A stretch of 64,000 bases of DNA from Spirochaetaceae bacterium. Lineage in GTDB: Bacteria > Spirochaetota > Spirochaetia > DSM-27196 > SLST01. Where the stretch lies: positions 5,660 through 69,659 of the forward strand of contig SKQU01000127.1 of the NCBI GenBank assembly GCA_007118855.1, given 5' to 3'. The stretch's first letter is position 1; each line of letters begins with the position of its first letter. Positions 13,847 to 24,729 of the stretch are shown piece by piece. A program made the translations under genes and the position numbers. Below the pieces are notes generated by a model. It was not told where the DNA came from. It saw only the letters and a program-made list of their open reading frames with translations, and ran no database searches.

Positions 13847-15760
13847 ATGGCCTACGTAGACACGCTGTTCAACACGAACTTCCTCGAATACGCGAGCTAC
13901 GTTATCAAGGACCGCGCGATACCGCATCTGGACGACGGGCTGAAGCCGGTTCAGCGCCGAATTCTGCACAGCCTGCTGGAGATGGACGACGGCAAGTACC
14001 ACAAGGTGGCGAATGTCGTCGGCCATTGCATGCAGTATCATCCCCACGGCGATGCATCGATCAACTCGGCGCTCGTCGTGCTTGCGAACAAGGACCTGTT
14101 CATAGACAAACAGGGCAATTTCGGCAACATACTCACCGGCGATGAGGCGAGTGCTCCGCGATACATCGAGTGCAGGGCGACTCCGCTGGCGAGGCGCATG
14201 CTCTATCAGCCCGACATCACCGAATACGAGCCGTCCTACGATGGACGTCGAAAGGAGCCGGTGGTCTTCCCGGCCAAGTTTCCGGTGGTGCTCGCGCTCG
14301 GAGCAGAGGGAATTGCCGTCGGGATGTCGACGAGAATTCTCCCGCATAACTTCATTGAGGTGTGTGAGGCGGTACAGCGGGCCCTGCGCGGTGAGCCGTT
14401 CGAGCTGTTTCCGGATTTTCCCGGCGGCGGGTACGTGGATGTATCCGGATACGACGACGGCCAGGGAAAGGTTCTCGTGCGCGCCAAGCTCGACACGTCG
14501 GATCCAAAGCGTATCGTGATCCGGGAGCTTCCGTACGGATCCACGACTGAGAGTCTCATCAACAGTGTGGAGGCGGCGGCGCGGAAAAACAAGGTGAAGA
14601 TCGCCTCGATCAGCGACTTCACCGCGGAGCATGTGGAGATAGAGATCAAGCTCGCCCGAGGCGTCTATACGCAAGAGGTCGTCGACTCGCTGTTTGCGTT
14701 CACCGAGTGCGAGAACTCGATCAGCGCCAATCTCCTCGTTATCAAGGACGGGAAACCCACCCTGATGACCGTGACGGAGGTCATTCAGCACCACGCGAGG
14801 CGGCTCGTCGCGGTACTCAACCAGGAGCTCGAGCTCGAACGCGGCCAGCTGCTCGACCGTCTGCACGCGCGGGCGCTCGAGCGGATCTTCGTGGAGGAGC
14901 GGCTGTACAAGCGGATCGAGGAGGAGAAGACTGCGGACGCCGTCACGAAGACCGTGATCGAGGGGTTTGAGCCGTTTCGCAACGAGATACGCCGGAAGGT
15001 TACCGTGGAGGATGTCGAACGCCTCCTCAAGATACCCATCAGGCGGATCTCGCGTTACGACATTGAGCGGGCAAGGAAGGAGATCGCCGAGATCAAGGAG
15101 CGCCTGAGCGAGGTCAGGCACCATCTCGCCAATATCACCGACTACGCCATCGACTACCTGGGAGACGTCATGGGCGACTACCAAAGCGCCTATCCGCGGC
15201 GGACCGAGATCGGGAGCTTCGAGCGAGTAGACGTCCGGGAAGCCGCCGTGCGGAACCTGAGTCTGCGCTACGATTCCTCGAGCGGCTACCTCGGGTATAA
15301 CCTCTCGTCGGGGAAAGAGCTCTTCAAGGTCTCGCCCTACGATCGAGTGCTGGTCATCCGGGCGAGCGGGACCTACTCGGTGATCACAGTTCCGGAGAAA
15401 CTGTTCGTCGACAAGGGCATGCTTTCCTGCGGCCTTGCGGACAAGGAGGTGCTTGCGTCCAGGGTGTTCAGCATCGTCTACAAGGACCGCAAGACACACT
15501 ATCCCTACCTGAAACGAACGCGGATCGAGCAGTATATCCTGGACAAGGGGTACGAGATCGTTCCGTCCGGGACGACCGTGCTCGCGCTGACGACGCGGGA
15601 CGGTGTCGTGGCGAACGTGAAGTACCGCAAGAAGAAGAATATCCGGGTGCTCGAGGAGGACTTCGACGTCGATGACTACCTGATCAAGGGGGTCAAGGCG
15701 CTCGGAGTTCGCCTGGCGACGCGCGAGGCCACCAGCGCGCGGTTCGTCGCCAGGCGCTGA
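13847..15760 (+). CDS. parC: Type IIA topoisomerase DNA-cleavage subunit, ParC-like (topoisomerase IV subunit A)
   Basis: 637 aa. LKPVQRRIL, HPHGD, and catalytic-Tyr region SAPRYIECR. The C-terminal domain is much shorter than the roughly 800+ aa GyrA form. Starts 1 nt after the parE stop. Confidence 0.8.
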   Translation: MAYVDTLFNTNFLEYASYVIKDRAIPHLDDGLKPVQRRILHSLLEMDDGKYHKVANVVGHCMQYHPHGDASINSALVVLANKDLFIDKQGNFGNILTGDEASAPRYIECRATPLARRMLYQPDITEYEPSYDGRRKEPVVFPAKFPVVLALGAEGIAVGMSTRILPHNFIEVCEAVQRALRGEPFELFPDFPGGGYVDVSGYDDGQGKVLVRAKLDTSDPKRIVIRELPYGSTTESLINSVEAAARKNKVKIASISDFTAEHVEIEIKLARGVYTQEVVDSLFAFTECENSISANLLVIKDGKPTLMTVTEVIQHHARRLVAVLNQELELERGQLLDRLHARALERIFVEERLYKRIEEEKTADAVTKTVIEGFEPFRNEIRRKVTVEDVERLLKIPIRRISRYDIERARKEIAEIKERLSEVRHHLANITDYAIDYLGDVMGDYQSAYPRRTEIGSFERVDVREAAVRNLSLRYDSSSGYLGYNLSSGKELFKVSPYDRVLVIRASGTYSVITVPEKLFVDKGMLSCGLADKEVLASRVFSIVYKDRKTHYPYLKRTRIEQYILDKGYEIVPSGTTVLALTTRDGVVANVKYRKKKNIRVLEEDFDVDDYLIKGVKALGVRLATREATSARFVARR

Positions 15761-15768
15761 TGTCGGTG

Positions 15769-15791
15769 CGAAGGGGCGCTATTCCCCTTCG
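15769..15791 (+). terminator. Terminator-like hairpin after parC
   Basis: Perfect 8-bp stem CGAAGGGG / CCCCTTCG with a 7-nt loop, 9 nt after the parC stop. No U-tract follows. Confidence 0.45.
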
Positions 15792-15818
15792 TGGCGAACG
15801 GGCGGTATACTACGGCCG

Positions 15819-16739
15819 ATGCGGGTGAAGGCGCGAGTCCGGACACTGGCGAGCCGTGCGTTGGCTGAGTCGATGGAAGTCAAGACGATGGTCCATCTGG
15901 TGCGGCGCCTGTTCGGCACATACGATCTCCATGAACGTACCGGGTTCCCGGCGTCGGTACCTATTCCCAATCGCGATGCCGCTCGGCAGATCGTTGACGA
16001 TGTCGTCGAAGCGGGGCGTTTTCTCGAGTTTGCCGCGCTCATGCTCGAAGTCGAGCGGCTCGGGATGGAGGGGAGGAAGTACCGGTTCCCCCGGCTGCAC
16101 GCGATCGTTCGCGAAATACTGGAGACCGGGTACTGCTTTGACGAACAGACGCGCGTCTTTGTAGAGGACAGTACCATTCGCACGACCCGTAACTGGGGTG
16201 TTCTGCGTGAGGGCGAAACGTACGTGATGGCGTTCCTCGGGATCGACGTGGTGGGCAATTCAGATCTGGTGCGTCGGCACGGACAGGCGGCAATGAGCGA
16301 TCTCTACCGGGCCTTGCGCAATCTCGTCGCGACGTCCGCCGGCCGTCGCAATGGCCGTCTGTGGGGTTGGGAAGGCGACGGCGGGATCGTCGCCTATACT
16401 TTTGAAGAGCAGAATCTCCGCGCGACGCTCACCGGAATGGAGCTCCTGAACGAGTTGCTCATCTACAATCTGGTTGAGTGCCCGCTGGACGCGGGGCTCC
16501 ACGTGCGAATGACCGTCCACAACGGGACCTGCGAGTATACCGACAGCGGAGCGGAGCTGAAGTGCGATACGCTCAAGCGCCTCTGGGAGATCGACACCCT
16601 GCACGGAATGCCGGACACGATGATCGTGACCGATTCGGTCTATCCGAGTCTCGACAGGGTCGTCGCCACCGGCCTGAAGCCGGTTGATGTAGCCGAAGAT
16701 CAGCGGTTCTACGCCTACTCGGTGAGGTTCGCGGACTGA
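15819..16739 (+). CDS. Cyclase-homology-domain (class III nucleotidyl cyclase-like) protein, catalytic Asn/Arg not conserved
   Basis: 306 aa. The C-terminal half aligns by eye to the CHD: VMAFLGIDVVG (F-x-D-x-x-G), WEGDGGIVAYTF (GD), LHVRMTVHNG (RIGIHTG-like), CDTLKRLWEID where GDTVNxAxRxE is expected. Start uncertain. Confidence 0.5.
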   Translation: MRVKARVRTLASRALAESMEVKTMVHLVRRLFGTYDLHERTGFPASVPIPNRDAARQIVDDVVEAGRFLEFAALMLEVERLGMEGRKYRFPRLHAIVREILETGYCFDEQTRVFVEDSTIRTTRNWGVLREGETYVMAFLGIDVVGNSDLVRRHGQAAMSDLYRALRNLVATSAGRRNGRLWGWEGDGGIVAYTFEEQNLRATLTGMELLNELLIYNLVECPLDAGLHVRMTVHNGTCEYTDSGAELKCDTLKRLWEIDTLHGMPDTMIVTDSVYPSLDRVVATGLKPVDVAEDQRFYAYSVRFAD

Positions 16740-16740
16740 G

Positions 16741-17730
16741 ATGACCGTATACGTCGTCACAAACAGCCGAACCGTTCGCGCCTCATTCGCCGCAATCGAC
16801 CGAAGCAGGACGTACACGGTGGAGTACGCCGCGGTGAAGGATCTTGGCGAGACTCTGCGACGGGCAGCCACCGTTCCCGAGTCGTTCGTCTACATGGACG
16901 CGGGCGGGATGGATCAGCCTACTCTCAGACGTCGCCTGCGCCGGCTTGAGAACGAGCGCCCGTACCGGTTCGGTGTGATTGACCATCAGGGACGCGTCTG
17001 CGACGTCGCAGAGCTCTTCCACAGCACCGCTGCCGATTACCTGGGGAAGTCGATGCTCGCGGCCGGGATTACCACAGCACGTCTGCGGCGCGTCGTCGAG
17101 TACGAACCGGCGCTGCCCGCCCGCCCGGCGGACGCGCATGTTCCCGAGCACGAACGCCATCGTTTCACGCCGTCAGGTTCGGATTGGACTGAGGTCGAAG
17201 ACGGGAAGGTGTATACCTTCCTTATGGTCTATGCAGGGCTCGACCAGGCCGGAGACCTGCGGCGAAAATCGAGCGAGGGGTTCCTCGCGGCGCTCCGCAG
17301 GAGCTTCAGCGGCATGCTCGAGCGAGCGTTTGCCGAGTACGCCGCCCGGGTGTGGATGTGGAAGGAGGACGAGGGGCTGCTCCTGATGCCGTTCGACGGA
17401 CGCGGGATGGACGCGGTCATCCCCGCGCTCCGTCTCGTACTGAACCGGACGGTCATCAATGCCGAGGAGTTCTCGCAGTTCGGTGAGCTCAGCTGGCGCC
17501 TCGCGCTGCACCTCGGGAACACGACGTACCGGTCGAGCGGACGAACCGGCGCGATCGTCTCGGAATCCGTGAACTTCCTGTTTCACCTCGGATCGCGGTT
17601 CGTGGAGCCCGGGGGGCTCGCCGTGACCGGACCCTGCCATGCGCTCGTGCCCGAAGGGATCCGCCCGCTCCTGAACCATTGCGGTCTGTTCGAGTCGGTA
17701 CAGGTCTACACCTTGCGCGAGCGGATGTGA
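16741..17730 (+). CDS. Receiver-like N-domain plus degenerate cyclase-homology domain protein
   Basis: 329 aa, ATG 1 nt after the previous stop. N-terminus resembles a CheY-like fold (MTVYVVTN...VYMDAGG...FGVIDHQG). C-terminus is CHD-like: [48 protein letters not shown] (Asn kept, Arg position is His). Confidence 0.5.
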
Positions 17731-17749
17731 CCGGGAGCGCAGGCGGGGC

Positions 17750-17780
17750 CCGGGTCCCGGCCGACGCACCGGGTCCCGGC
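17750..17780 (+). terminator. GC-rich hairpin (two CCGGGTCCCGGC copies) after the cyclase-like pair
   Basis: 12-mer CCGGGTCCCGGC at 17750-17761 and 17769-17780. The near-palindromic copies can pair as an 11-bp stem with one central T-T mismatch and a 7-nt loop. Begins 20 nt after the stop at 17730. Confidence 0.45.
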
Positions 17781-17828
17781 GGCTGCCCGTTGGCAGTTCC
17801 TCCGCGGATCAGTACCTTAGAGGAACCC

Positions 17829-19454
17829 ATGGACATAGCACACGAGATCTCCCGTCGACGAACATTCGGGATCATCAGCCACCCGGACGCCGGGAAGACG
17901 ACGCTCACCGAGAAGCTGTTGCTGTTCGGAGGCAGCATCCGAAGCGCCGGGGCCGTTAAGTCGAACAAGATCCGGAAGACTGCCGCTTCCGACTTCATGG
18001 AGATCGAGAAGCAGCGGGGCATCTCGGTTGCCACGTCGGTCATGAGCTTCGAGTATCGCGGGCAGCTCATCAACATTCTCGACACTCCGGGCCACCGGGA
18101 CTTCGCTGAGGACACGTACCGGACGCTGACCGCCGTCGACAGCGTCATCCTCGTCGTCGATTCGGTGAAGGGCGTGGAGGAACAGACCGAGCGGCTGATG
18201 GAGGTCTGCCGGATGCGGAACACGCCGGTGATCATCTTCATCAACAAGCTCGACCGCGAAGGGCGACCGTCTTTCGAGCTTCTCGATGAGATCGAAGAGA
18301 AGCTGCAGATCGCCGTGCGCCCGCTTACCTGGCCGATCGGGATGGGGCGCGGATTCCGGGGGGTGTACAATCTCCGGGAGCAGAACCTCTACCTCTTCCA
18401 GGCCGGGAAGACCGTTGTCGAGAACGACCGGATACTCGTTGAGCGGCTCGACGATCCGATGCTCGAGAACCTGCTTGGTTCTGCGGCTGACCAGCTTCGC
18501 GAAGATGTCGAGCTGATAGACGGGGTGTACGAGCCTCTCGACGAGGCCGAGTACCGTGGCGCAAACGTGGCACCCGTGTTTTTCGGGAGCGCGCTGAACA
18601 ATTTCGGCGTGCGCGAGTTGCTCGAGACCTTTGTGAGACTCGCGCCGACGCCGACTCCCCGGGATTCCGACCTGCGCACGGTACAGCCGAGCGAGGCGAA
18701 GTTTTCCGGGTTCGTGTTCAAGATCCATGCGAATCTCGACCCGCGTCACCGCGATCGGATCGCATTCCTGCGCGTCTGTTCCGGGGTCTTCCGCAAGGAC
18801 GTCGCCTTTCACCACGTGCGTCAGGGCAGGAGCATCCGCTTCTCGCGTCCCTACAGCTTCATGGCTGAGCGCAAGGCCGTCGTCGATGAAGCCTATCCCG
18901 GGGATGTCGTGGGGCTCTACGATCGCGGAGACCTGAAGATCGGCGATACCCTGACCGAGGGAGAGAACCTTGTCTTCCGCGGTATCCCGAGCTTCGCTCC
19001 CGAGATCTTCAAGGAACTCGTCTCGACCGATCCCATGCGGTCGAAACAGCTGGACAAGGGGATCCAGCAGCTGACCGAGGAAGGGGTCGCCCAGCTGTTC
19101 ATCCAGGACCGGGGACGCCGCAAGATCGTCGGCGCTGTTGGCGAGCTGCAGTTCGAGGTCATCCAGTATCGCCTGACGAACGAGTACGGGGCCGCGTGCC
19201 GGCTGGAACCGCTCCCGTATGCCCGGGCCTGCTGGCTCACGTCTGACGATCCGAAGGTGCTCGCCGAGTTCATGAGGTACCGCGACCGCCAGGTCGCGTA
19301 CGATCGCGACCGACGACCCGTCTACCTCGCCGAGAGCGAGTGGATGCTGCGCTCCATGATCCGGGACAACGCGAAGGTGATGTTCCACTTCACGTCCGAG
19401 TTCAAGACGGCATCATCCGGCGAGACCGATGAGGACAGCGCGTCAGTCGCGTAG
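17829..19454 (+). CDS. prfC: Peptide chain release factor 3 (translational GTPase)
   Basis: ORF is open from 17679, but the homologous N-terminus is [31 protein letters not shown] at ATG 17829. G-motifs AGKT, DTPGH, NKLD. 541 aa from that start. Confidence 0.9.
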
Positions 19455-19841: not shown

Positions 19842-21146
19842 TCAGTACGACCACTTGCGGCTGATCGAGTGAATGACGTCGAGCATGTCGAGAAAATGCT
19901 GAACGAGCGCGGGGTCGAACCGCCCACCCGCCTCGCTTCGCAGATGGTCGATCACACGGGGCTCGGGCCACGGCTCCTTGTACGCCCGATGTGACATCAG
20001 CGCATCGTAGACGTCGGCAATCGCGACGATTCGTGCAGTGACCGGGATCTCGGTGCCGCGCTTGGGGCGTCCGACGCGTACCTTGCGAGCGAAGATGTTT
20101 TCTATGTGCCCGGGATAGCCGGTTCCGTCCCAGCGCTCGTGATGGTTCAGGGTCACTTCCCGGGCGACCAGATCCCAGGCGGAATCGTCGCGTTTGAACA
20201 GACGCGCGCCGTAGATCGTATGCAGCTGCATCCGGCGCCGTTCATCACCCGAAAGATTCCGCCCTTTGCGTAGAATGGTGTCGCTGATCGCGACTTTCCC
20301 CACATCGTGCAGCATCGCCGCGGTCCGGATGATCTCGCGATTGGCTCGCACCTCATCCGGCGGGGTTCCTTCCGCTGTCGCCCACTTGTCGTACAGTTCC
20401 ACCGCGTACGCGCCGACGCGCTTGGCATGCTGGCCGGTTTCGTACGGGTCACGCAGACCGCTGAGCTCGACGAGGCGCAGTACCATGTCGCGCGAGAGTC
20501 GGGCCCGCTCGATCGCGTCCGCCGCCGCCTGCGCGAACTGGTTGGCGTACTGCGTCTCCTGGTAGGAGAATGATACCGTCGAGCCGTCGTCGTCGATTGC
20601 GTTTATCAGCTGCAGCACGCCAACCAGGCTGTTGTCGCGGGTGAGCAGCGGGACGATGAGCATGCTCTTCGTCCGGTAGTTCGACCGGGTGTCGAACTCC
20701 GGGTTGAACGCGTAGCTGACGTTGCTCTGGATGTCGTACACGTCGTCGATCACCAGGGACTCGCCGCTGGCTGCAACGTATCCGGCCAGTGACGATCGGT
20801 TGATCGGGAGGCTGTTGGCCGAGTAGACGTAGCGCGAGTCCGGGGTCTGGCCGGCGAAAAGGGTATCGTTCTGGACGTAACTGAAGAAGAGCCGGTTCTT
20901 GGCTTTGAGGTAGATCGTCCCCGCGTCGGCCCGCACCAGACGGCGCGCCTTCAGGAGGACCTGCTCGAGGAGCGTGTCGAGGTCGCGAACCCGGTTCAGG
21001 CTCTGGATCGCCTGCAGAACCCCCTGCGCATCCCGCCGAGCCGGTTGGGTCTCGGAATCGATCTGGTGGGGCAGGATCGACTCCACGAGCGACAGGTCCG
21101 AGTCCTCAGACGGACCCAGGTCGAATACGTGTACAGGTTGTGCCAC
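19842..21146 (-). CDS. GAF domain / HD-GYP domain protein (putative c-di-GMP phosphodiesterase)
   Basis: 434 aa, GTG start. N-terminal GAF-like region, C-terminal HD-GYP motifs (AAMLHDVGKVAISDTIL, HHERWDGTGYPG). Starts 5 nt after the ROK gene stop. Confidence 0.85.
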   Translation of the reverse strand: MAQPVHVFDLGPSEDSDLSLVESILPHQIDSETQPARRDAQGVLQAIQSLNRVRDLDTLLEQVLLKARRLVRADAGTIYLKAKNRLFFSYVQNDTLFAGQTPDSRYVYSANSLPINRSSLAGYVAASGESLVIDDVYDIQSNVSYAFNPEFDTRSNYRTKSMLIVPLLTRDNSLVGVLQLINAIDDDGSTVSFSYQETQYANQFAQAAADAIERARLSRDMVLRLVELSGLRDPYETGQHAKRVGAYAVELYDKWATAEGTPPDEVRANREIIRTAAMLHDVGKVAISDTILRKGRNLSGDERRRMQLHTIYGARLFKRDDSAWDLVAREVTLNHHERWDGTGYPGHIENIFARKVRVGRPKRGTEIPVTARIVAIADVYDALMSHRAYKEPWPEPRVIDHLRSEAGGRFDPALVQHFLDMLDVIHSISRKWSY

Positions 21147-21151
21147 TCTTC

Positions 21152-22351
21152 TTATTGTAGAGTGTTTACTCGAGCATAACCATAAGAAAACTCGGTTCCG
21201 CGGTTGTCCGATCCGGCGAGCTCATTGAGCGGCAGGGCCGGACTCTCCGGTGAGAACAGGGTCTCAACGACCATCTGCGCGGCGCCGTGCGCAACCGCGA
21301 GGAGCTCCGGCTCGCGAAAGGCTATCTCGACCTGGCCCGGCGGGACGAGGTCTGCGGCAAGCCTTCGCATCTCCAGGCCGAGTGCGCCGAGATCCCCGGC
21401 TACCACGATTCGGGGAGGGTCGAGCAGTGAGGAGATCACGACCAGATTGCGGATCAGCTCCGTCGCGGCGGCGTTGACCGCGGCCTGCTGCCCGTCACGG
21501 AGCCGAATCTGCTCGAGGTCAACGCCGAGCTGGTCCGCGTCACGCACGGTATACCCGTATCCGCGCAGTTCCCCGGCGGCGCCCCGGTGACCGCGGAGAA
21601 TGCGCCCCTCGGCTACGACTATCACCCCGACTCCCATCCCCGTGGGGAGGAATCGTTCACCATCCGTGTGGAGCTTGGTGTAGACGTAGACGCCGTCGGC
21701 GGCGGTCGTCTCTCCGCGCGAGAGCTCGGTGCGGCAGGCGGCGATCTCACGCCATGCGTAACAGGTTGCATCGTTCGCCGCGCGCAGCGGAGGATCGTCG
21801 CAGTTCCAGACAGATGCGATGTCGAGGTCCGAGAGCCCGAGCTCGAACGACTCGACGAGCCGGGAGCGCGAACGGTCGAAGAGCCCGGGGAGCGCCAGCC
21901 CGACCCCGAGAACCCGACGGCCGTCCGGATGCGACCGGACGATATCGCGCAGGTCGGCGAGGACGCCCTCCATCCAGGAACGACGCACTGCTCCGCCGGC
22001 CGAAGGCATGCTCGGCCCGAGTGCCCCGTCCGCGAGCGGCTCCCCCTGCAGGTCGGTGAGCAACCATCGCACGCTCCTCGATCGCACCTCGGCGCTGAGT
22101 ATCGAGTACCTGCTCCGCTCGACGGAGAGCAGCTCGGCGCGCCGTCCTCCGCGGCTGCCCGCCGGCGCCTCGGCTACCGCCTCGATGAGTCGTGCGGCGA
22201 GCAGTGCGGAGGTGATGTGGGTCATCGTCGATCGATCGAGCCCGAGTTGAGCCGCCAGCTCGCTCCGGCTCGCCCTTCCGAGCGATATGAGCGCGCGCAT
22301 GACCGCGAAAGCGTTCTGTGCGCGACCGCGCTGCCGGCTCCTGCCGTTCAC
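21152..22351 (-). CDS. ROK-family transcriptional regulator (NagC/XylR-like)
   Basis: 399 aa. N-terminal winged-helix (RALISLGRASRSELAAQLGLDRSTMTHITSALL) and a sugar-kinase-like ROK body. GTG start overlaps the upstream TAG by 1 nt. Confidence 0.8.
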   Translation of the reverse strand: MNGRSRQRGRAQNAFAVMRALISLGRASRSELAAQLGLDRSTMTHITSALLAARLIEAVAEAPAGSRGGRRAELLSVERSRYSILSAEVRSRSVRWLLTDLQGEPLADGALGPSMPSAGGAVRRSWMEGVLADLRDIVRSHPDGRRVLGVGLALPGLFDRSRSRLVESFELGLSDLDIASVWNCDDPPLRAANDATCYAWREIAACRTELSRGETTAADGVYVYTKLHTDGERFLPTGMGVGVIVVAEGRILRGHRGAAGELRGYGYTVRDADQLGVDLEQIRLRDGQQAAVNAAATELIRNLVVISSLLDPPRIVVAGDLGALGLEMRRLAADLVPPGQVEIAFREPELLAVAHGAAQMVVETLFSPESPALPLNELAGSDNRGTEFSYGYARVNTLQ

Positions 22352-24729
22352 TACGCGTTCTCCGCGCGCCGGCGCAGATCGCGGGAGTACCGGTAGAACT
22401 CCTGCGGGCTCATGGTGCGCACGAAGACGAATCCTCGCGTCGCCCGTATGAGGGGGCTTTCGTGGCCGTAGAAGTAGTCTCGCCCGAGGCAGTTTGCCAA
22501 CATCTCGTACTGACTGACCTGGATCCGCTGAGAGAGCTCGCAGAATGGTCCCTGGTGATCGTGACTCGGGAAGCTCGCTTCGCGCTGCGAGAGATACGTG
22601 TTCATGAACGAGTAGTGCTCGAGCGTGAGCATGTTGAGTGAGACGGGCACGAACACGCTTGCCTCGGACGGATGGAACCGAAACCAGACATTGCGGTAGC
22701 CGAGCACCGTGATGTCATCACGCCCTGACTCCTCCTGGTAGATCCGCAACGCCTCAGCGATCGCCTGCATAACCTTGTAGTGGGTATCCGGACCGCTGGC
22801 CTCCGGATCAAAGGCGACGGTGATGTAGTCCGGCTCGACCTTCCGGATGAGTTCGAGAACCGGGCCGACGTCACGGCCGAGCTGCGGTTCAGGAGTGAAG
22901 ACATCACCGGTGTAGAATCCGAGCCGCAGGTCCTCAACCGAGTTCGAGTCCCACCCGAAGTATCCCCACAGACAGGCGCTCTCCCACTCGCGCACCATGC
23001 CCTTGAGGGTCTGGATGTGCGGCAGATCCTTCTTCCCCGGGTACTGTGTCTCGAAGTAGTTCACGAGCTCCTCAACACGTTCGCGCAGATCGCGCGGTTC
23101 GAGCTCGTCGAATACGTGAATGAGATTGCGCAGAAACCGCCGCATCGTACCCTCGAGCTTGAGCTCTTCGTCCTCCGCGGCGATGCCGTCGAGGTACCGA
23201 AGTACGTCGTAGTCCTCGTACTGCTCGGCTTCCGGGCTGAAGTAGCCCTCCTCGAGCAGTCGGGAGAAACCGAATCGCTCTTCGTCGATCGTGCGCCGCA
23301 TCTCGCGGCAGAGGCGAAGCATGTACTCGTTGGTGACCGACGTGAAACCGCTGGTGAGCGTCGCGAAATGGTGCGTGTTCGAGTGGTCGCGGATTGTCCG
23401 CACGACGAACGGCATGTAACCGAGCATTATGTCGTCGTGATGGGGTTCGGTGTGCAGGAATCGCTTGCCGGTCGGCAGGTGCCGTCCCGCCTCGATCCGC
23501 GCGCGCAGATCGTCGGCGACGAGGCGCGTGAGCTGGTCGACCGGTCCGTCGGTGAGGCGCAGCAGCACCGTGCCGTACGGGTCTTCGGCGAAGTCGTCCC
23601 GGCTGAGGTCGACGACCCGTTTGCCGGTCTTGAGCGCAAGGTCGATCACGATCCGCTGGATTTCCCGTTCGTCAAGCGTTCCCGTCGTCTCGAGCGATGC
23701 AATACGGCGAGCGGTCAGGTGCTTCGCGGCACCCTTGGTCAGGTAGACCCGGCTCTCGCTCAGGCTGGTCAGCGCCGTGGCGGGGTAGCGGACGTCGCGG
23801 TCGTGCTGGACCGCGTCCGCGACGACAGCGGCCTTCGCCTCGCCGGCGGCCATGATCAGCGCGACGGTCTCCGGATTGAAGGTGATGGTCGCGAGCCCGA
23901 TGGTGATCACCAGGCGCTCCTCGGCGACCTCGATCCCGCCAAGGTCGGTTGCCGCGGCCGCCTTCGTCTCGTAGTTGACCTGCGTCAGGCGGGTCGTGGA
24001 GTGCATGTCACTGCCGCGGACGTTGAAGCCGATGTGGCCGTCTGGACCGATTCCGCCGAGGAAGAACCCGATTCCGCCGAGCGCACGGATACGGTCCTCG
24101 AATTCCACGCACCATTGATCAACGTTCCGGATGACGCGTTGCTGGAGCTGTTCGCGCGGTCCCCGCGGGAGCCGGTACCGCAGCTCGAGGTCGACTCCGC
24201 CGCTCCCCCAGATCGACTCGAGGCTGTGTCCCTCGGGAATCCCGATCTCGTCGCACCGGATGAAGTGCCCTCGCCGCGGGTCGAGCTCCAACCCCTCCAC
24301 ATAGTACTTGTGCACGTAGTAGTAGAAGCTGTTCTGGTGACGCGGGTTGATCGGGTAGAACTCGTCGATCTGCACGAAGCGGAGTCCTTCGGTTCGGGGC
24401 CTGATTCCCGGATCGAGTCCGAGCCCCTCGACCTCCGTGCGAGTCCCGGGGGAATCCCAGCTGTTGAGGATGCGGAGAGTCTCCTTGATGAAGTGTTCCG
24501 GCGTCCGCCCGGTGGGCAGCGCGATCGTTCCCTCCGGGTGGGTCTGTACCCATTCGAGGAATCGGGCCGCGGTGAGCGTCCCGAGCGTCGGGAAGCTGTC
24601 CACGACGATGACCCCTATCCGCTCGTCAGGAGCATACTGCAGCGATTGGCCCGAACGATCGAGAAAGGTCTTTTCAACGGGGGACGGCACCGGCGCTCCT
24701 CTTCTCCGGGCCCGGCGACGTCCTGCCAC
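22351..24729 (-). CDS. nagB: Glucosamine-6-phosphate deaminase fused to a LmbE/PIG-L-like deacetylase-fold domain (long NagB form)
   Basis: 792 aa. N-terminal half has NagB motifs (ALPTGRTPEHF, VQIDEFYPI, GGIGPDGHIGFN). C-terminal half has an LmbE-type motif (TEPHHDDIMLGYMPF). GTG start at 24729 is uncertain. Confidence 0.8.
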   Translation of the reverse strand: MAGRRRARRRGAPVPSPVEKTFLDRSGQSLQYAPDERIGVIVVDSFPTLGTLTAARFLEWVQTHPEGTIALPTGRTPEHFIKETLRILNSWDSPGTRTEVEGLGLDPGIRPRTEGLRFVQIDEFYPINPRHQNSFYYYVHKYYVEGLELDPRRGHFIRCDEIGIPEGHSLESIWGSGGVDLELRYRLPRGPREQLQQRVIRNVDQWCVEFEDRIRALGGIGFFLGGIGPDGHIGFNVRGSDMHSTTRLTQVNYETKAAAATDLGGIEVAEERLVITIGLATITFNPETVALIMAAGEAKAAVVADAVQHDRDVRYPATALTSLSESRVYLTKGAAKHLTARRIASLETTGTLDEREIQRIVIDLALKTGKRVVDLSRDDFAEDPYGTVLLRLTDGPVDQLTRLVADDLRARIEAGRHLPTGKRFLHTEPHHDDIMLGYMPFVVRTIRDHSNTHHFATLTSGFTSVTNEYMLRLCREMRRTIDEERFGFSRLLEEGYFSPEAEQYEDYDVLRYLDGIAAEDEELKLEGTMRRFLRNLIHVFDELEPRDLRERVEELVNYFETQYPGKKDLPHIQTLKGMVREWESACLWGYFGWDSNSVEDLRLGFYTGDVFTPEPQLGRDVGPVLELIRKVEPDYITVAFDPEASGPDTHYKVMQAIAEALRIYQEESGRDDITVLGYRNVWFRFHPSEASVFVPVSLNMLTLEHYSFMNTYLSQREASFPSHDHQGPFCELSQRIQVSQYEMLANCLGRDYFYGHESPLIRATRGFVFVRTMSPQEFYRYSRDLRRRAENA

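Follow-up and report, generated by a model that had tools for sequence, protein, structure and literature searches.

Two adjacent cyclase-homology genes of Spirochaetota with complementary active-site residues: a candidate C1/C2-like heterodimeric class III enzyme

In class III nucleotidyl cyclases the catalytic pockets sit at a head-to-tail dimer interface, where one subunit gives the metal-binding Asp residues and its partner gives the transition-state Asn and Arg as well as the residues that specify the base (PMC9552081). The bacterial enzymes of this class have been described as homodimers with two equivalent pockets, and the asymmetric design with a single site is treated as a eukaryotic innovation (PMC9552081, PMC4821796). 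For Rv1625c of Mycobacterium tuberculosis, PMC4821796 recounts from Guo et al. 2001 that the mutants D300A and R376A are each inactive and complement one another when together. Here we describe two adjacent genes in a 64,000-nucleotide stretch of DNA from a Spirochaetaceae bacterium (contig SKQU01000127.1; hereafter the window), whose products, P1 and P2, appear to divide the residues of one such pocket between them.

In the literature searched, neither this family nor any naturally occurring heterodimeric class III cyclase of bacteria was found described, in agreement with an initial annotation of the locus that had not recognised the two-gene architecture as a described system. We lean, with moderate confidence, towards reading the pair as an obligate C1/C2-like heterodimeric class III enzyme with one composite site. 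The evidence consists of the fold and homology of the two proteins, their strict gene pairing, the complementary constraint on their residues and the occurrence of single-gene relatives that keep all four residues; from it we infer the physical pairing, the head-to-tail geometry, the cyclisation of a nucleoside triphosphate and its regulation.

Cyclase-homology domains and the division of active-site residues

Direct scans with Pfam and NCBIfam found nothing in P1 or P2, and single-sequence searches of PDB with either protein returned only matches at E about 0.7, so that family profiles were required. These were built from an alignment of 59 P1 relatives (A1) and one of the P2 family (A2). Against PDB, the P1 profile matched, over P1 residues 135-296, the solved class III cyclases 3mr7 (E 1.9e-8) and Ma1120 (E 1.6e-7); the P2 profile alone matched no cyclase. 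Comparison of the two families by hhalign aligned P1 118-301 to P2 140-326 with a probability of 99.2% (E 1.1e-19). P2 is thus tied to characterised cyclases by sequence only through P1, because its own profile matches none of them. AlphaFold2 models were calculated from the family alignments (predicted local distance difference test, pLDDT, 90 for P1 and 86 for P2) and compared with PDB using Foldseek. The top 50 matches of P1 were all class III adenylyl or guanylyl cyclases, with Ma1120 at TM 0.80 (E about 1e-8), and the top 50 of P2 were class III cyclases bar three diguanylate cyclase chains of the receiver-GGDEF type (PleD, DgcR), with Ma1120 at TM 0.75 (E about 1e-7). Identity of P1 and P2 to Ma1120 and 3mr7 is only 12-22%.

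The profile, hhalign, AlphaFold2 and Foldseek results together therefore indicate that both C-terminal halves share the predicted cyclase-homology fold and that the two domains are paralogues, nearer to each other than to canonical cyclases. The initial annotation had aligned these halves by eye to class III cyclase catalytic domains, which the P1 profile (E 2e-8) and the AlphaFold2 models bear out; the check that it proposed for the fold fails with direct Pfam searches and succeeds with the family profile and the predicted structures. Assignment to GGDEF or another palm domain was rejected, as all of the top 50 structural matches of P1 are class III cyclases; PleD and DgcR occur among the P2 matches because of their receiver-plus-palm arrangement only.

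Residue conservation was counted over 81 P1 and 80 P2 sequences. The P2 register at the Asp positions is that of P1 plus 23, on the basis of hhalign and matching strand and helix boundaries, and N278 and H282 of P2 were placed on the canonical Asn and Arg columns through hhalign of P2 with P1 plus the alignment of the P1 profile to 3mr7. Both metal-binding Asp residues that had been read in P1 (D143 in GIDVVG and D187 in EGDG) proved to be invariant (Table 1), as are the flanking G186 and G188 (81/81 each). The phosphate-loop position, S148 in P1, is Ser or Thr in all 81 sequences; its P2 counterpart (171) is variable. When the family profile is set against 3mr7, the canonical Asn does pair with K253 of the P1 motif CDTLKRLWEID and the canonical Arg with E257. 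Neither position is fixed in the family: 253 has K56/N8/R6 and others, and 257 has E36/D13/Q12/R8 and others. The P2 motif ESVNFLFH likewise retains the Asn (N278) and has His at the Arg position (H282), both on the canonical columns.

The two Asp positions of P2 need more qualification. Across the family the first is Glu, non-acidic or Asn and the second is mostly Phe or Tyr. The statement that P2 lacks a clear first metal Asp (YAGLDQAG) stands, but the register differs from the one assumed: in the structural and hhalign register G166 occupies the position, and not D168, two residues later. This Asp168 (codons within 17236-17244) is itself 92% conserved. The second Asp had been called ambiguous; the motif quoted for it (KEDEG) is present in the sequence and D210 is at the position, but Asp or Glu is found there only in the subclade of the window. 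The two degenerate positions also seem to co-vary, with Gly166 accompanying Asp/Glu210 in that subclade (L001-L012) and Glu166 and Phe/Tyr210 predominating elsewhere, as judged from family frequencies and a few sequences and not from per-locus counts.

All 80 pairs in which both proteins were read have the two Asp residues in P1, and every P2 read at these positions has the Asn, with His, or in two cases Asn, at the Arg position. The aligned domains span 180 columns, of which P1 has 25 and P2 has 13 that reach 95% conservation. Columns that reach it in P1 and not in P2 include D143, N147, R177, R180, E185, G186, D187 and N217, and those that reach it in P2 and not in P1 include G267, the inserted T269, N278, H282, G284 and E318. 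Were the 25 and 13 conserved columns placed at random, the four positions specified beforehand would show such complementarity with a probability of about 6e-5. The most divergent pair, at locus L082, has Asp, Asp, Ile and Ile at these positions in P1 and Arg, Arg, Asn and His in P2. The complementary degeneracy noticed in the window thus extends to all 80 pairs and to L082, and these alignments mark it as a family-wide selective constraint and no quirk of one sequence.

In the assembly that we propose, P1 and P2 would be co-expressed or co-translated and would form an obligate heterodimer with the class III cyclase fold. P1 would be the C1-like partner, giving the metal-binding D143 and D187 and the phosphate-loop S148, and P2 the C2-like partner, giving the ribose/transition-state N278 together with H282 in place of the usual Arg. 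A head-to-tail P1-P2 dimer would then have a single catalytic pocket that is complete, the other being a degenerate pseudo-site, and neither homodimer could assemble such a complete pocket. Activity would presumably be controlled through the atypical receiver-like domain of P2 and the helical N-terminal domain of P1.

Gene pairing and single-gene relatives

With one genome scanned per species, a P1 relative turned up in 354 genomes, and the best 80 loci were kept. These are all Spirochaetota by title, Leptospirales bins included, except for one titled "uncultured bacterium". At 79 of these loci P1 is followed directly, on its own strand, by a P2 relative, and at the sole unpaired locus the contig ends inside P1. 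The pairing persists at identities as low as 38% for P1 and 27% for P2, and the distance from P1 stop to P2 start is between -4 and +4 nucleotides in 70 of the 79 loci; the junction read in the window, two genes one nucleotide apart (TGA-g-ATG), is as described. The more distant pair at L082 (P1 31% identical) again encodes proteins of 306 and 329 amino acids with zero gap. Conservation of the two genes as neighbours, proposed at the outset as a check, therefore holds at species level in 79 of 80 loci plus L082, and the C1/C2-like asymmetry suggested for the two-gene split is supported by this strict pairing as well as by the residue constraint. Of the three refuting conditions that the initial annotation had set, checked directly or by approximation, none went against the idea.

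The closest public relative (L001), a metagenome-assembled genome of Spirochaetales, shares the gene order and has a P1 that is 87% identical. Flanking parE/parC-like and prfC genes are common to the closest 12 or so loci only. When all neighbours of the 80 loci were clustered no third gene was found in more than 13 loci, so that a larger conserved operon was rejected, and the 13-locus cluster itself consists of antisense open reading frames (ORFs) overlying the pair.

In the databases the 96 homologues of P1 are unannotated or carry the JGI label 'class 3 adenylate cyclase', and P2 has 40 close homologues, among which the JGI label 'CheY-like' occurs. At E<=1e-30 the P2 family takes in 200 clusters among 1.84 billion representatives, the matches being nearly all single stretches of about 200-390 amino acids, mostly 310-390 and the rest shorter fragments. 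All family members seen are unnamed, 'hypothetical' or under a generic JGI label, and no named cultured organism is among their sources. Two long reading frames were considered as P1-P2 fusions and rejected. P0371 (630 amino acids; L086 488-2380) joins a P2-type cyclase-homology domain to an unrelated N-terminal region that has a P-loop-like motif ('GPHGSGKT'); its contig is only 2.4 kb long and covered about 2x, so that it is probably a chimera. The 632-amino-acid ORF of L040 is merely a P2 reading frame that is open upstream.

The proteins P0094, P0095 and P0096 have the full architecture of P1, are about 25% identical to it and are encoded by single genes that have no P2-like neighbour. In P0094 and P0096 a single chain carries the Asp, the GDG motif, the Asn and the His ('SIDICGNS', 'WAGDGG', 'DVINYASHLE'), and P0095 scores like them against both family profiles. 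On their sequences, proteins of the P0094/P0096 type are candidates for the homodimeric ancestral state. In keeping with the full D/GDG/N/H set of such relatives, the pair probably arose via duplication and complementary loss: a single-gene ancestor of homodimer type would have had all four residues, with His already standing in for Arg, and after its duplication one copy would have exchanged its N-terminal domain before the catalytic residues were lost complementarily.

Tandem paralogues in one operon might also form two independent homodimers, each with its own non-canonical function. Such an arrangement would agree with the description of bacterial class III cyclases as homodimers (PMC9552081, PMC4821796), and the differing N-terminal domains could mean differing inputs, but it matches the conservation pattern poorly and we consider it very unlikely. 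A P1 homodimer sets invariant metal Asps against variable Lys/Glu positions and a P2 homodimer sets an invariant Asn/His against degenerate Asp positions; because each homodimer mixes invariant and degenerate positions, the observed constraints would have no rationale. The pairing in 79 of 80 loci, near-zero spacing and unconserved flanks also exceed what is expected of tandem paralogues whose roles are unrelated.

Pocket composition, N-terminal domains and genomic setting

Several features of the predicted pocket and of its surroundings weigh against the heterodimeric cyclase that we favour. Where canonical enzymes have the base-specifying Lys, P2 has Met/Ile and P1 has Ser/Asn/Gly; the second specificity residue varies in both families, and neither protein has a substrate pair for ATP (Lys/Asp or Lys/Thr) or for GTP (Glu/Cys). 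The transition-state Arg is replaced by His in 76 of 78 P2 sequences, and the phosphate-binding Lys of the hairpin is apparently replaced by Phe-Glu. The register of this last pair was set by eye against a canonical cyclase from L026, in a part of the alignment that is uncertain; F317 is at least 90% conserved and E318 is invariant in A2 and 96% conserved over the 80 sequences. Because these pocket residues are non-canonical, triphosphate binding by P2 is not obviously possible, and with the canonical residues for base specification and phosphate binding missing, no nucleotide product can be named. In addition, PF00211 matches neither window protein even at E<=10, weakly matches 13 of 59 P1 relatives (best E 2e-4) and matches none of 35 P2 relatives, no natural P1-P2 fusion occurs among the best 150 P2 relatives, and no conserved linkage to a cyclic-nucleotide effector or phosphodiesterase was found, with a cyclic-nucleotide-binding neighbour in 2 of 86 loci.

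A heterodimeric pseudo-enzyme, whose composite pocket only binds a metal-nucleotide or other small ligand and which serves as a sensor or scaffold, would account for a P2 that has no counterparts of the base-specifying Lys, hairpin Lys and transition-state Arg, for the missing effector or phosphodiesterase gene beside the pair and for the failure of the Pfam cyclase model. We regard it as possible but rather unlikely. The metal Asps are kept in 81 of 81 P1 sequences and the Asn/His in nearly all P2 sequences, down to 27-38% identity, which is the pattern expected of catalytic residues, and, as the single-gene relatives keep D/D/N/H, the Asn...His combination appears to be a functional variant within this clade. 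Arg177 and Arg180, which are invariant and specific to P1, could, speculatively, supply the missing positive charge.

The same residues also raise the question of whether a heterodimeric enzyme of this fold carries out a different chemistry or uses a non-purine substrate, making, for example, a cyclic pyrimidine nucleotide or some other product of nucleotidyl transfer. The adenine (Lys/Asp) and guanine (Glu/Cys) pairs are both missing, the Lys position of P2 is occupied by Met/Ile and its Arg position by His in 76 of 78 sequences, and two family-specific invariant residues of P2 are without a canonical equivalent, namely T269, which belongs to a 2-residue insertion, and E318. P1 weakly matches the model of the Pycsar pyrimidine cyclase PycC (E 2.6e-5), which probably reflects general fold homology only. 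But no particular substrate is positively indicated, the neighbourhood is one of housekeeping genes and no defence island, P2 has no PADLOC match, and the specificity positions of class III cyclases tolerate variation; we therefore hold such a chemistry to be improbable. The anti-phage Pycsar system was itself rejected as an assignment on the weak PycC match in P1 and none in P2, the lack of an effector gene and the housekeeping surroundings. It is likewise doubtful, in our judgement, that the composite pocket of the heterodimer is unlike that of all characterised class III cyclases and yields a product other than cyclic AMP or cyclic GMP. A pocket of this kind would bring together the metal Asps and Arg177/Arg180 of P1 with the Asn, His and Thr269 of P2, with no base-specifying or phosphate-binding Lys from P2, and if real it would point to a second messenger particular to spirochaetes or to a novel reaction of nucleotidyl transfer.

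With regard to the domains through which the favoured heterodimer would be regulated, that of P1 has no Pfam, NCBIfam or PDB sequence match; Y35 is invariant in it and D36, P50, A54, A55 and D61 are at least 90% conserved. The N-terminal domain of P2 was modelled as five strands alternating with helices (pLDDT >85), and its assignment to a (beta-alpha)5 fold rests on this secondary structure and on whole-protein Foldseek alignments, those to the receiver-GGDEF proteins PleD and DgcR spanning 310-327 columns. Sequence matches to receivers are below threshold, both for the P2 profile against PDB (E 0.09-1) and for PF00072 (1 of 35 members, E 0.33). D53 aligns, in such a sub-threshold match, to the acceptor Asp of 3w9s. 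Positions 7-9, after beta1, are Ser/Thr, Asp/Asn and Ser/Asn/Thr/Gly, giving one acidic residue at most, the Thr/Ser position of receivers after beta4 is Asp81 (76/80), and the beta5 Lys position is Lys/Arg in only 57 of 80 sequences. The domain had been taken for receiver-like with no obvious phospho-acceptor context; the conserved D53 (78/80) speaks against the second part of this, but the rest of the pocket is atypical, and it is best called an atypical or pseudo-receiver.

The G+C content of the window is about 64%, and the pair is set among housekeeping genes (Table 1). The GyrA/ParC-like gene upstream is short (637 amino acids) and forms a tight pair with the GyrB/ParE-like gene, stop and start abutting. 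The GAF-HD protein downstream is possibly an HD-GYP-type phosphodiesterase and is syntenic in the closest relatives L001, L003, L005, L008 and L011. A further ORF of 792 amino acids (22351-24729, minus strand) has no Pfam match at E<=0.01, and its N-terminal part resembles, by eye, sugar-phosphate isomerase/deaminase-type sequences ('ALPTGRTPEHF'). Inside gene 1 a terminator-like hairpin with a T-rich tail (16373-16395, plus strand) lies exactly over the GDG codons; 5 terminator-like sites were observed in 15500-18000 against 1.0 expected from shuffles, and this hairpin is most likely a chance match within coding sequence.

At other loci, two kinds of nearby gene relate to cyclic nucleotides. 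Divergently upstream of the pair in L082 (2586-4742, minus strand) is a 718-amino-acid protein that combines two cyclic-nucleotide-binding domains (cNMP_binding E 5e-33) with a region of metallo-beta-lactamase fold and has a weak Apyc1-like match, possibly a cyclic-nucleotide-regulated phosphodiesterase; L045 is the only other locus with a cyclic-nucleotide-binding neighbour. In L014, L018, L026, L049 and L053 a 918-amino-acid protein is encoded about 700 nucleotides upstream of the pair on the opposite strand (L026 2562-5318, minus strand). It has a fully canonical class III cyclase domain (FTDVKGFS, KYEGD, VNLAARLE) and an N-terminal part that, by eye, looks hydrophobic and membrane-associated.

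Table 1. Coordinates of the gene pair, its predicted domains and residues, neighbouring genes and single-gene relatives (window positions unless a locus is named)
Feature	Position	Strand	Basis and remarks
ORF1/gene 1 (P1, 306 amino acids)	15819..16739	+	ORF list; helical N-terminal domain and C1-like cyclase-homology domain
P1 N-terminal domain, residues 1-116	15819..16166	+	Helices and beta-hairpin (AlphaFold2 secondary structure)
P1 cyclase-homology domain (predicted), residues 134-301	16218..16721	+	Profile matches to 3mr7, Ma1120; Foldseek TM 0.80 to Ma1120
P1 D143 codon, first metal-binding Asp	16245..16247	+	Asp 81/81; aligned to metal Asp of 3mr7, Ma1120
P1 D187 codon (GDG), second metal-binding Asp	16377..16379	+	Asp 81/81; aligned to GDG of 3mr7, Ma1120
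P1 K253...E257, canonical transition-state Asn and Arg positions, both lost	16575..16589	+	Alignment to 3mr7
Gene junction TGA-g-ATG	16737..16743	+	Read from sequence; spacer between ORF1 and ORF2 of 1 base
ORF2/gene 2 (P2, 329 amino acids)	16741..17730	+	ORF list; receiver-like domain, flexible linker, C2-like cyclase-homology domain
P2 receiver-like (beta-alpha)5 domain, residues 1-120	16741..17100	+	AlphaFold2 secondary structure
P2 D53 codon, phospho-acceptor position (end of beta3)	16897..16899	+	Asp 78/80
P2 inter-domain linker, residues 124-139	17110..17157	+	pLDDT <50, predicted disordered; length varies in alignment
P2 cyclase-homology domain (predicted), residues 157-325	17209..17715	+	hhalign to P1 family; Foldseek TM 0.75 to Ma1120
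P2 G166 codon, counterpart of first metal Asp	17236..17238	+	Gly here; Glu in 65% of family, else variable
P2 D210 codon, second metal-Asp position	17368..17370	+	Family: F35, Y11, D10, E3 and others
P2 N278...H282, canonical Asn and Arg positions	17572..17586	+	N 78/78, H 76/78
P2 F317-E318, beta7-beta8 hairpin turn	17689..17694	+	Canonical C2-type phosphate-binding Lys site
GyrB/ParE-like gene, 617 amino acids	11993..13846	+	Upstream of pair
GyrA/ParC-like gene, 637 amino acids	13847..15760	+	Directly upstream of ORF1; only DNA_topoisoIV core model matched
Release factor 3 (prfC)	about 17829..19454		Downstream of pair
GAF + HD-domain protein	19842-21146	-	HD/HD_5 Pfam matches; two genes downstream of pair
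Single-gene relatives (P0094, P0095, P0096)	L081 5001-5975; L083 686-1633; L084 3021-3995; L085 625-1599		

Comparison with described cyclase systems

By predicted structure and profile-level homology the pair falls within the class III fold; adenylyl or guanylyl cyclase function is putative, and several of the residues that define it are missing. The best sequence and structure matches, Ma1120 (4wp8/4wp9) and 3mr7, share the fold, the GDG motif and the beta4 Arg but are homodimers with the full residue set in each chain. Among bacterial systems, the Rhodospirillum centenum guanylyl cyclase GcyA/GcyB/GcyC is also reported to need separately encoded operon subunits that are annotated as hypothetical, but GcyB and GcyC are described as non-catalytic (PMC4681086). 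No homology of the Gcy subunits to P1 or P2 turned up in any search, the cyclase-homology relation of GcyB/GcyC not having been examined.

Three eukaryotic systems are comparable in design. The fungal NeoR/RGC rhodopsin-guanylyl cyclases are heterodimers that arose from homodimers by duplication of neighbouring genes, with the cyclase domain of one partner inactive alone (PMC10622942); unlike the spirochaete pair they have rhodopsin sensors and canonical guanylyl cyclase chemistry. The alpha and beta subunits of soluble guanylyl cyclase are separately encoded, each has a cyclase-homology domain at its C-terminus after a sensory N-terminal region, and together they form one active and one pseudo-site (PMC3591389), as is proposed here for P1 and P2. 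They differ in their haem-NOB, PAS and coiled-coil modules and in the canonical Glu/Cys and Arg, whereas the spirochaete proteins have receiver-like and helical domains and no coiled-coil signalling helix was recognised in them. In the pseudo-heterodimeric catalytic core of mammalian membrane adenylyl cyclase, C1 keeps the metal Asps, as does P1, and C2 keeps the transition-state Asn, as does P2. One pocket and one pseudo-site are likewise predicted for the pair, and in both cases the ancestor duplicated would be of homodimer type (PMC9552081). C1 and C2 are, however, fused in one membrane-anchored polypeptide, whereas P1 and P2 are predicted to be two separate soluble proteins from adjacent genes, and C2 has the adenine-specifying Lys/Asp together with Arg1029 and Lys1065 where P2 has Met/Ile, His and apparently Phe-Glu. 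The origin of the spirochaete pair would also be an independent one, in bacteria.

The complementing Rv1625c mutants show the same logic in a laboratory construct. As cited in PMC4821796, one subunit is without a metal Asp and the other without the Arg, and a single pocket is restored, so that by analogy the spirochaete pair looks like a natural counterpart of D300A and R376A. The mutants derive, on that account, from one gene whose wild-type product is a symmetric homodimer with two pockets, whereas the spirochaete arrangement is naturally fixed across hundreds of species and has N-terminal domains that differ between the partners.

What would be new with respect to all of these is a putative C1/C2-type heterodimer of the class III cyclase fold that is encoded by two genes, is confined to Spirochaetota and carries an Asn-His signature. 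The description brings together, as one family, more than 300 protein clusters that are labelled 'hypothetical' and are invisible to Pfam. If the reading is correct, the asymmetric one-site cyclase design would have had an independent bacterial origin, and the pair would offer a small, soluble and genetically separable system in which to ask why such asymmetry evolves, for example through a pseudo-site turning regulatory, with the single-gene relatives that hold the full residue set as a built-in evolutionary comparison.

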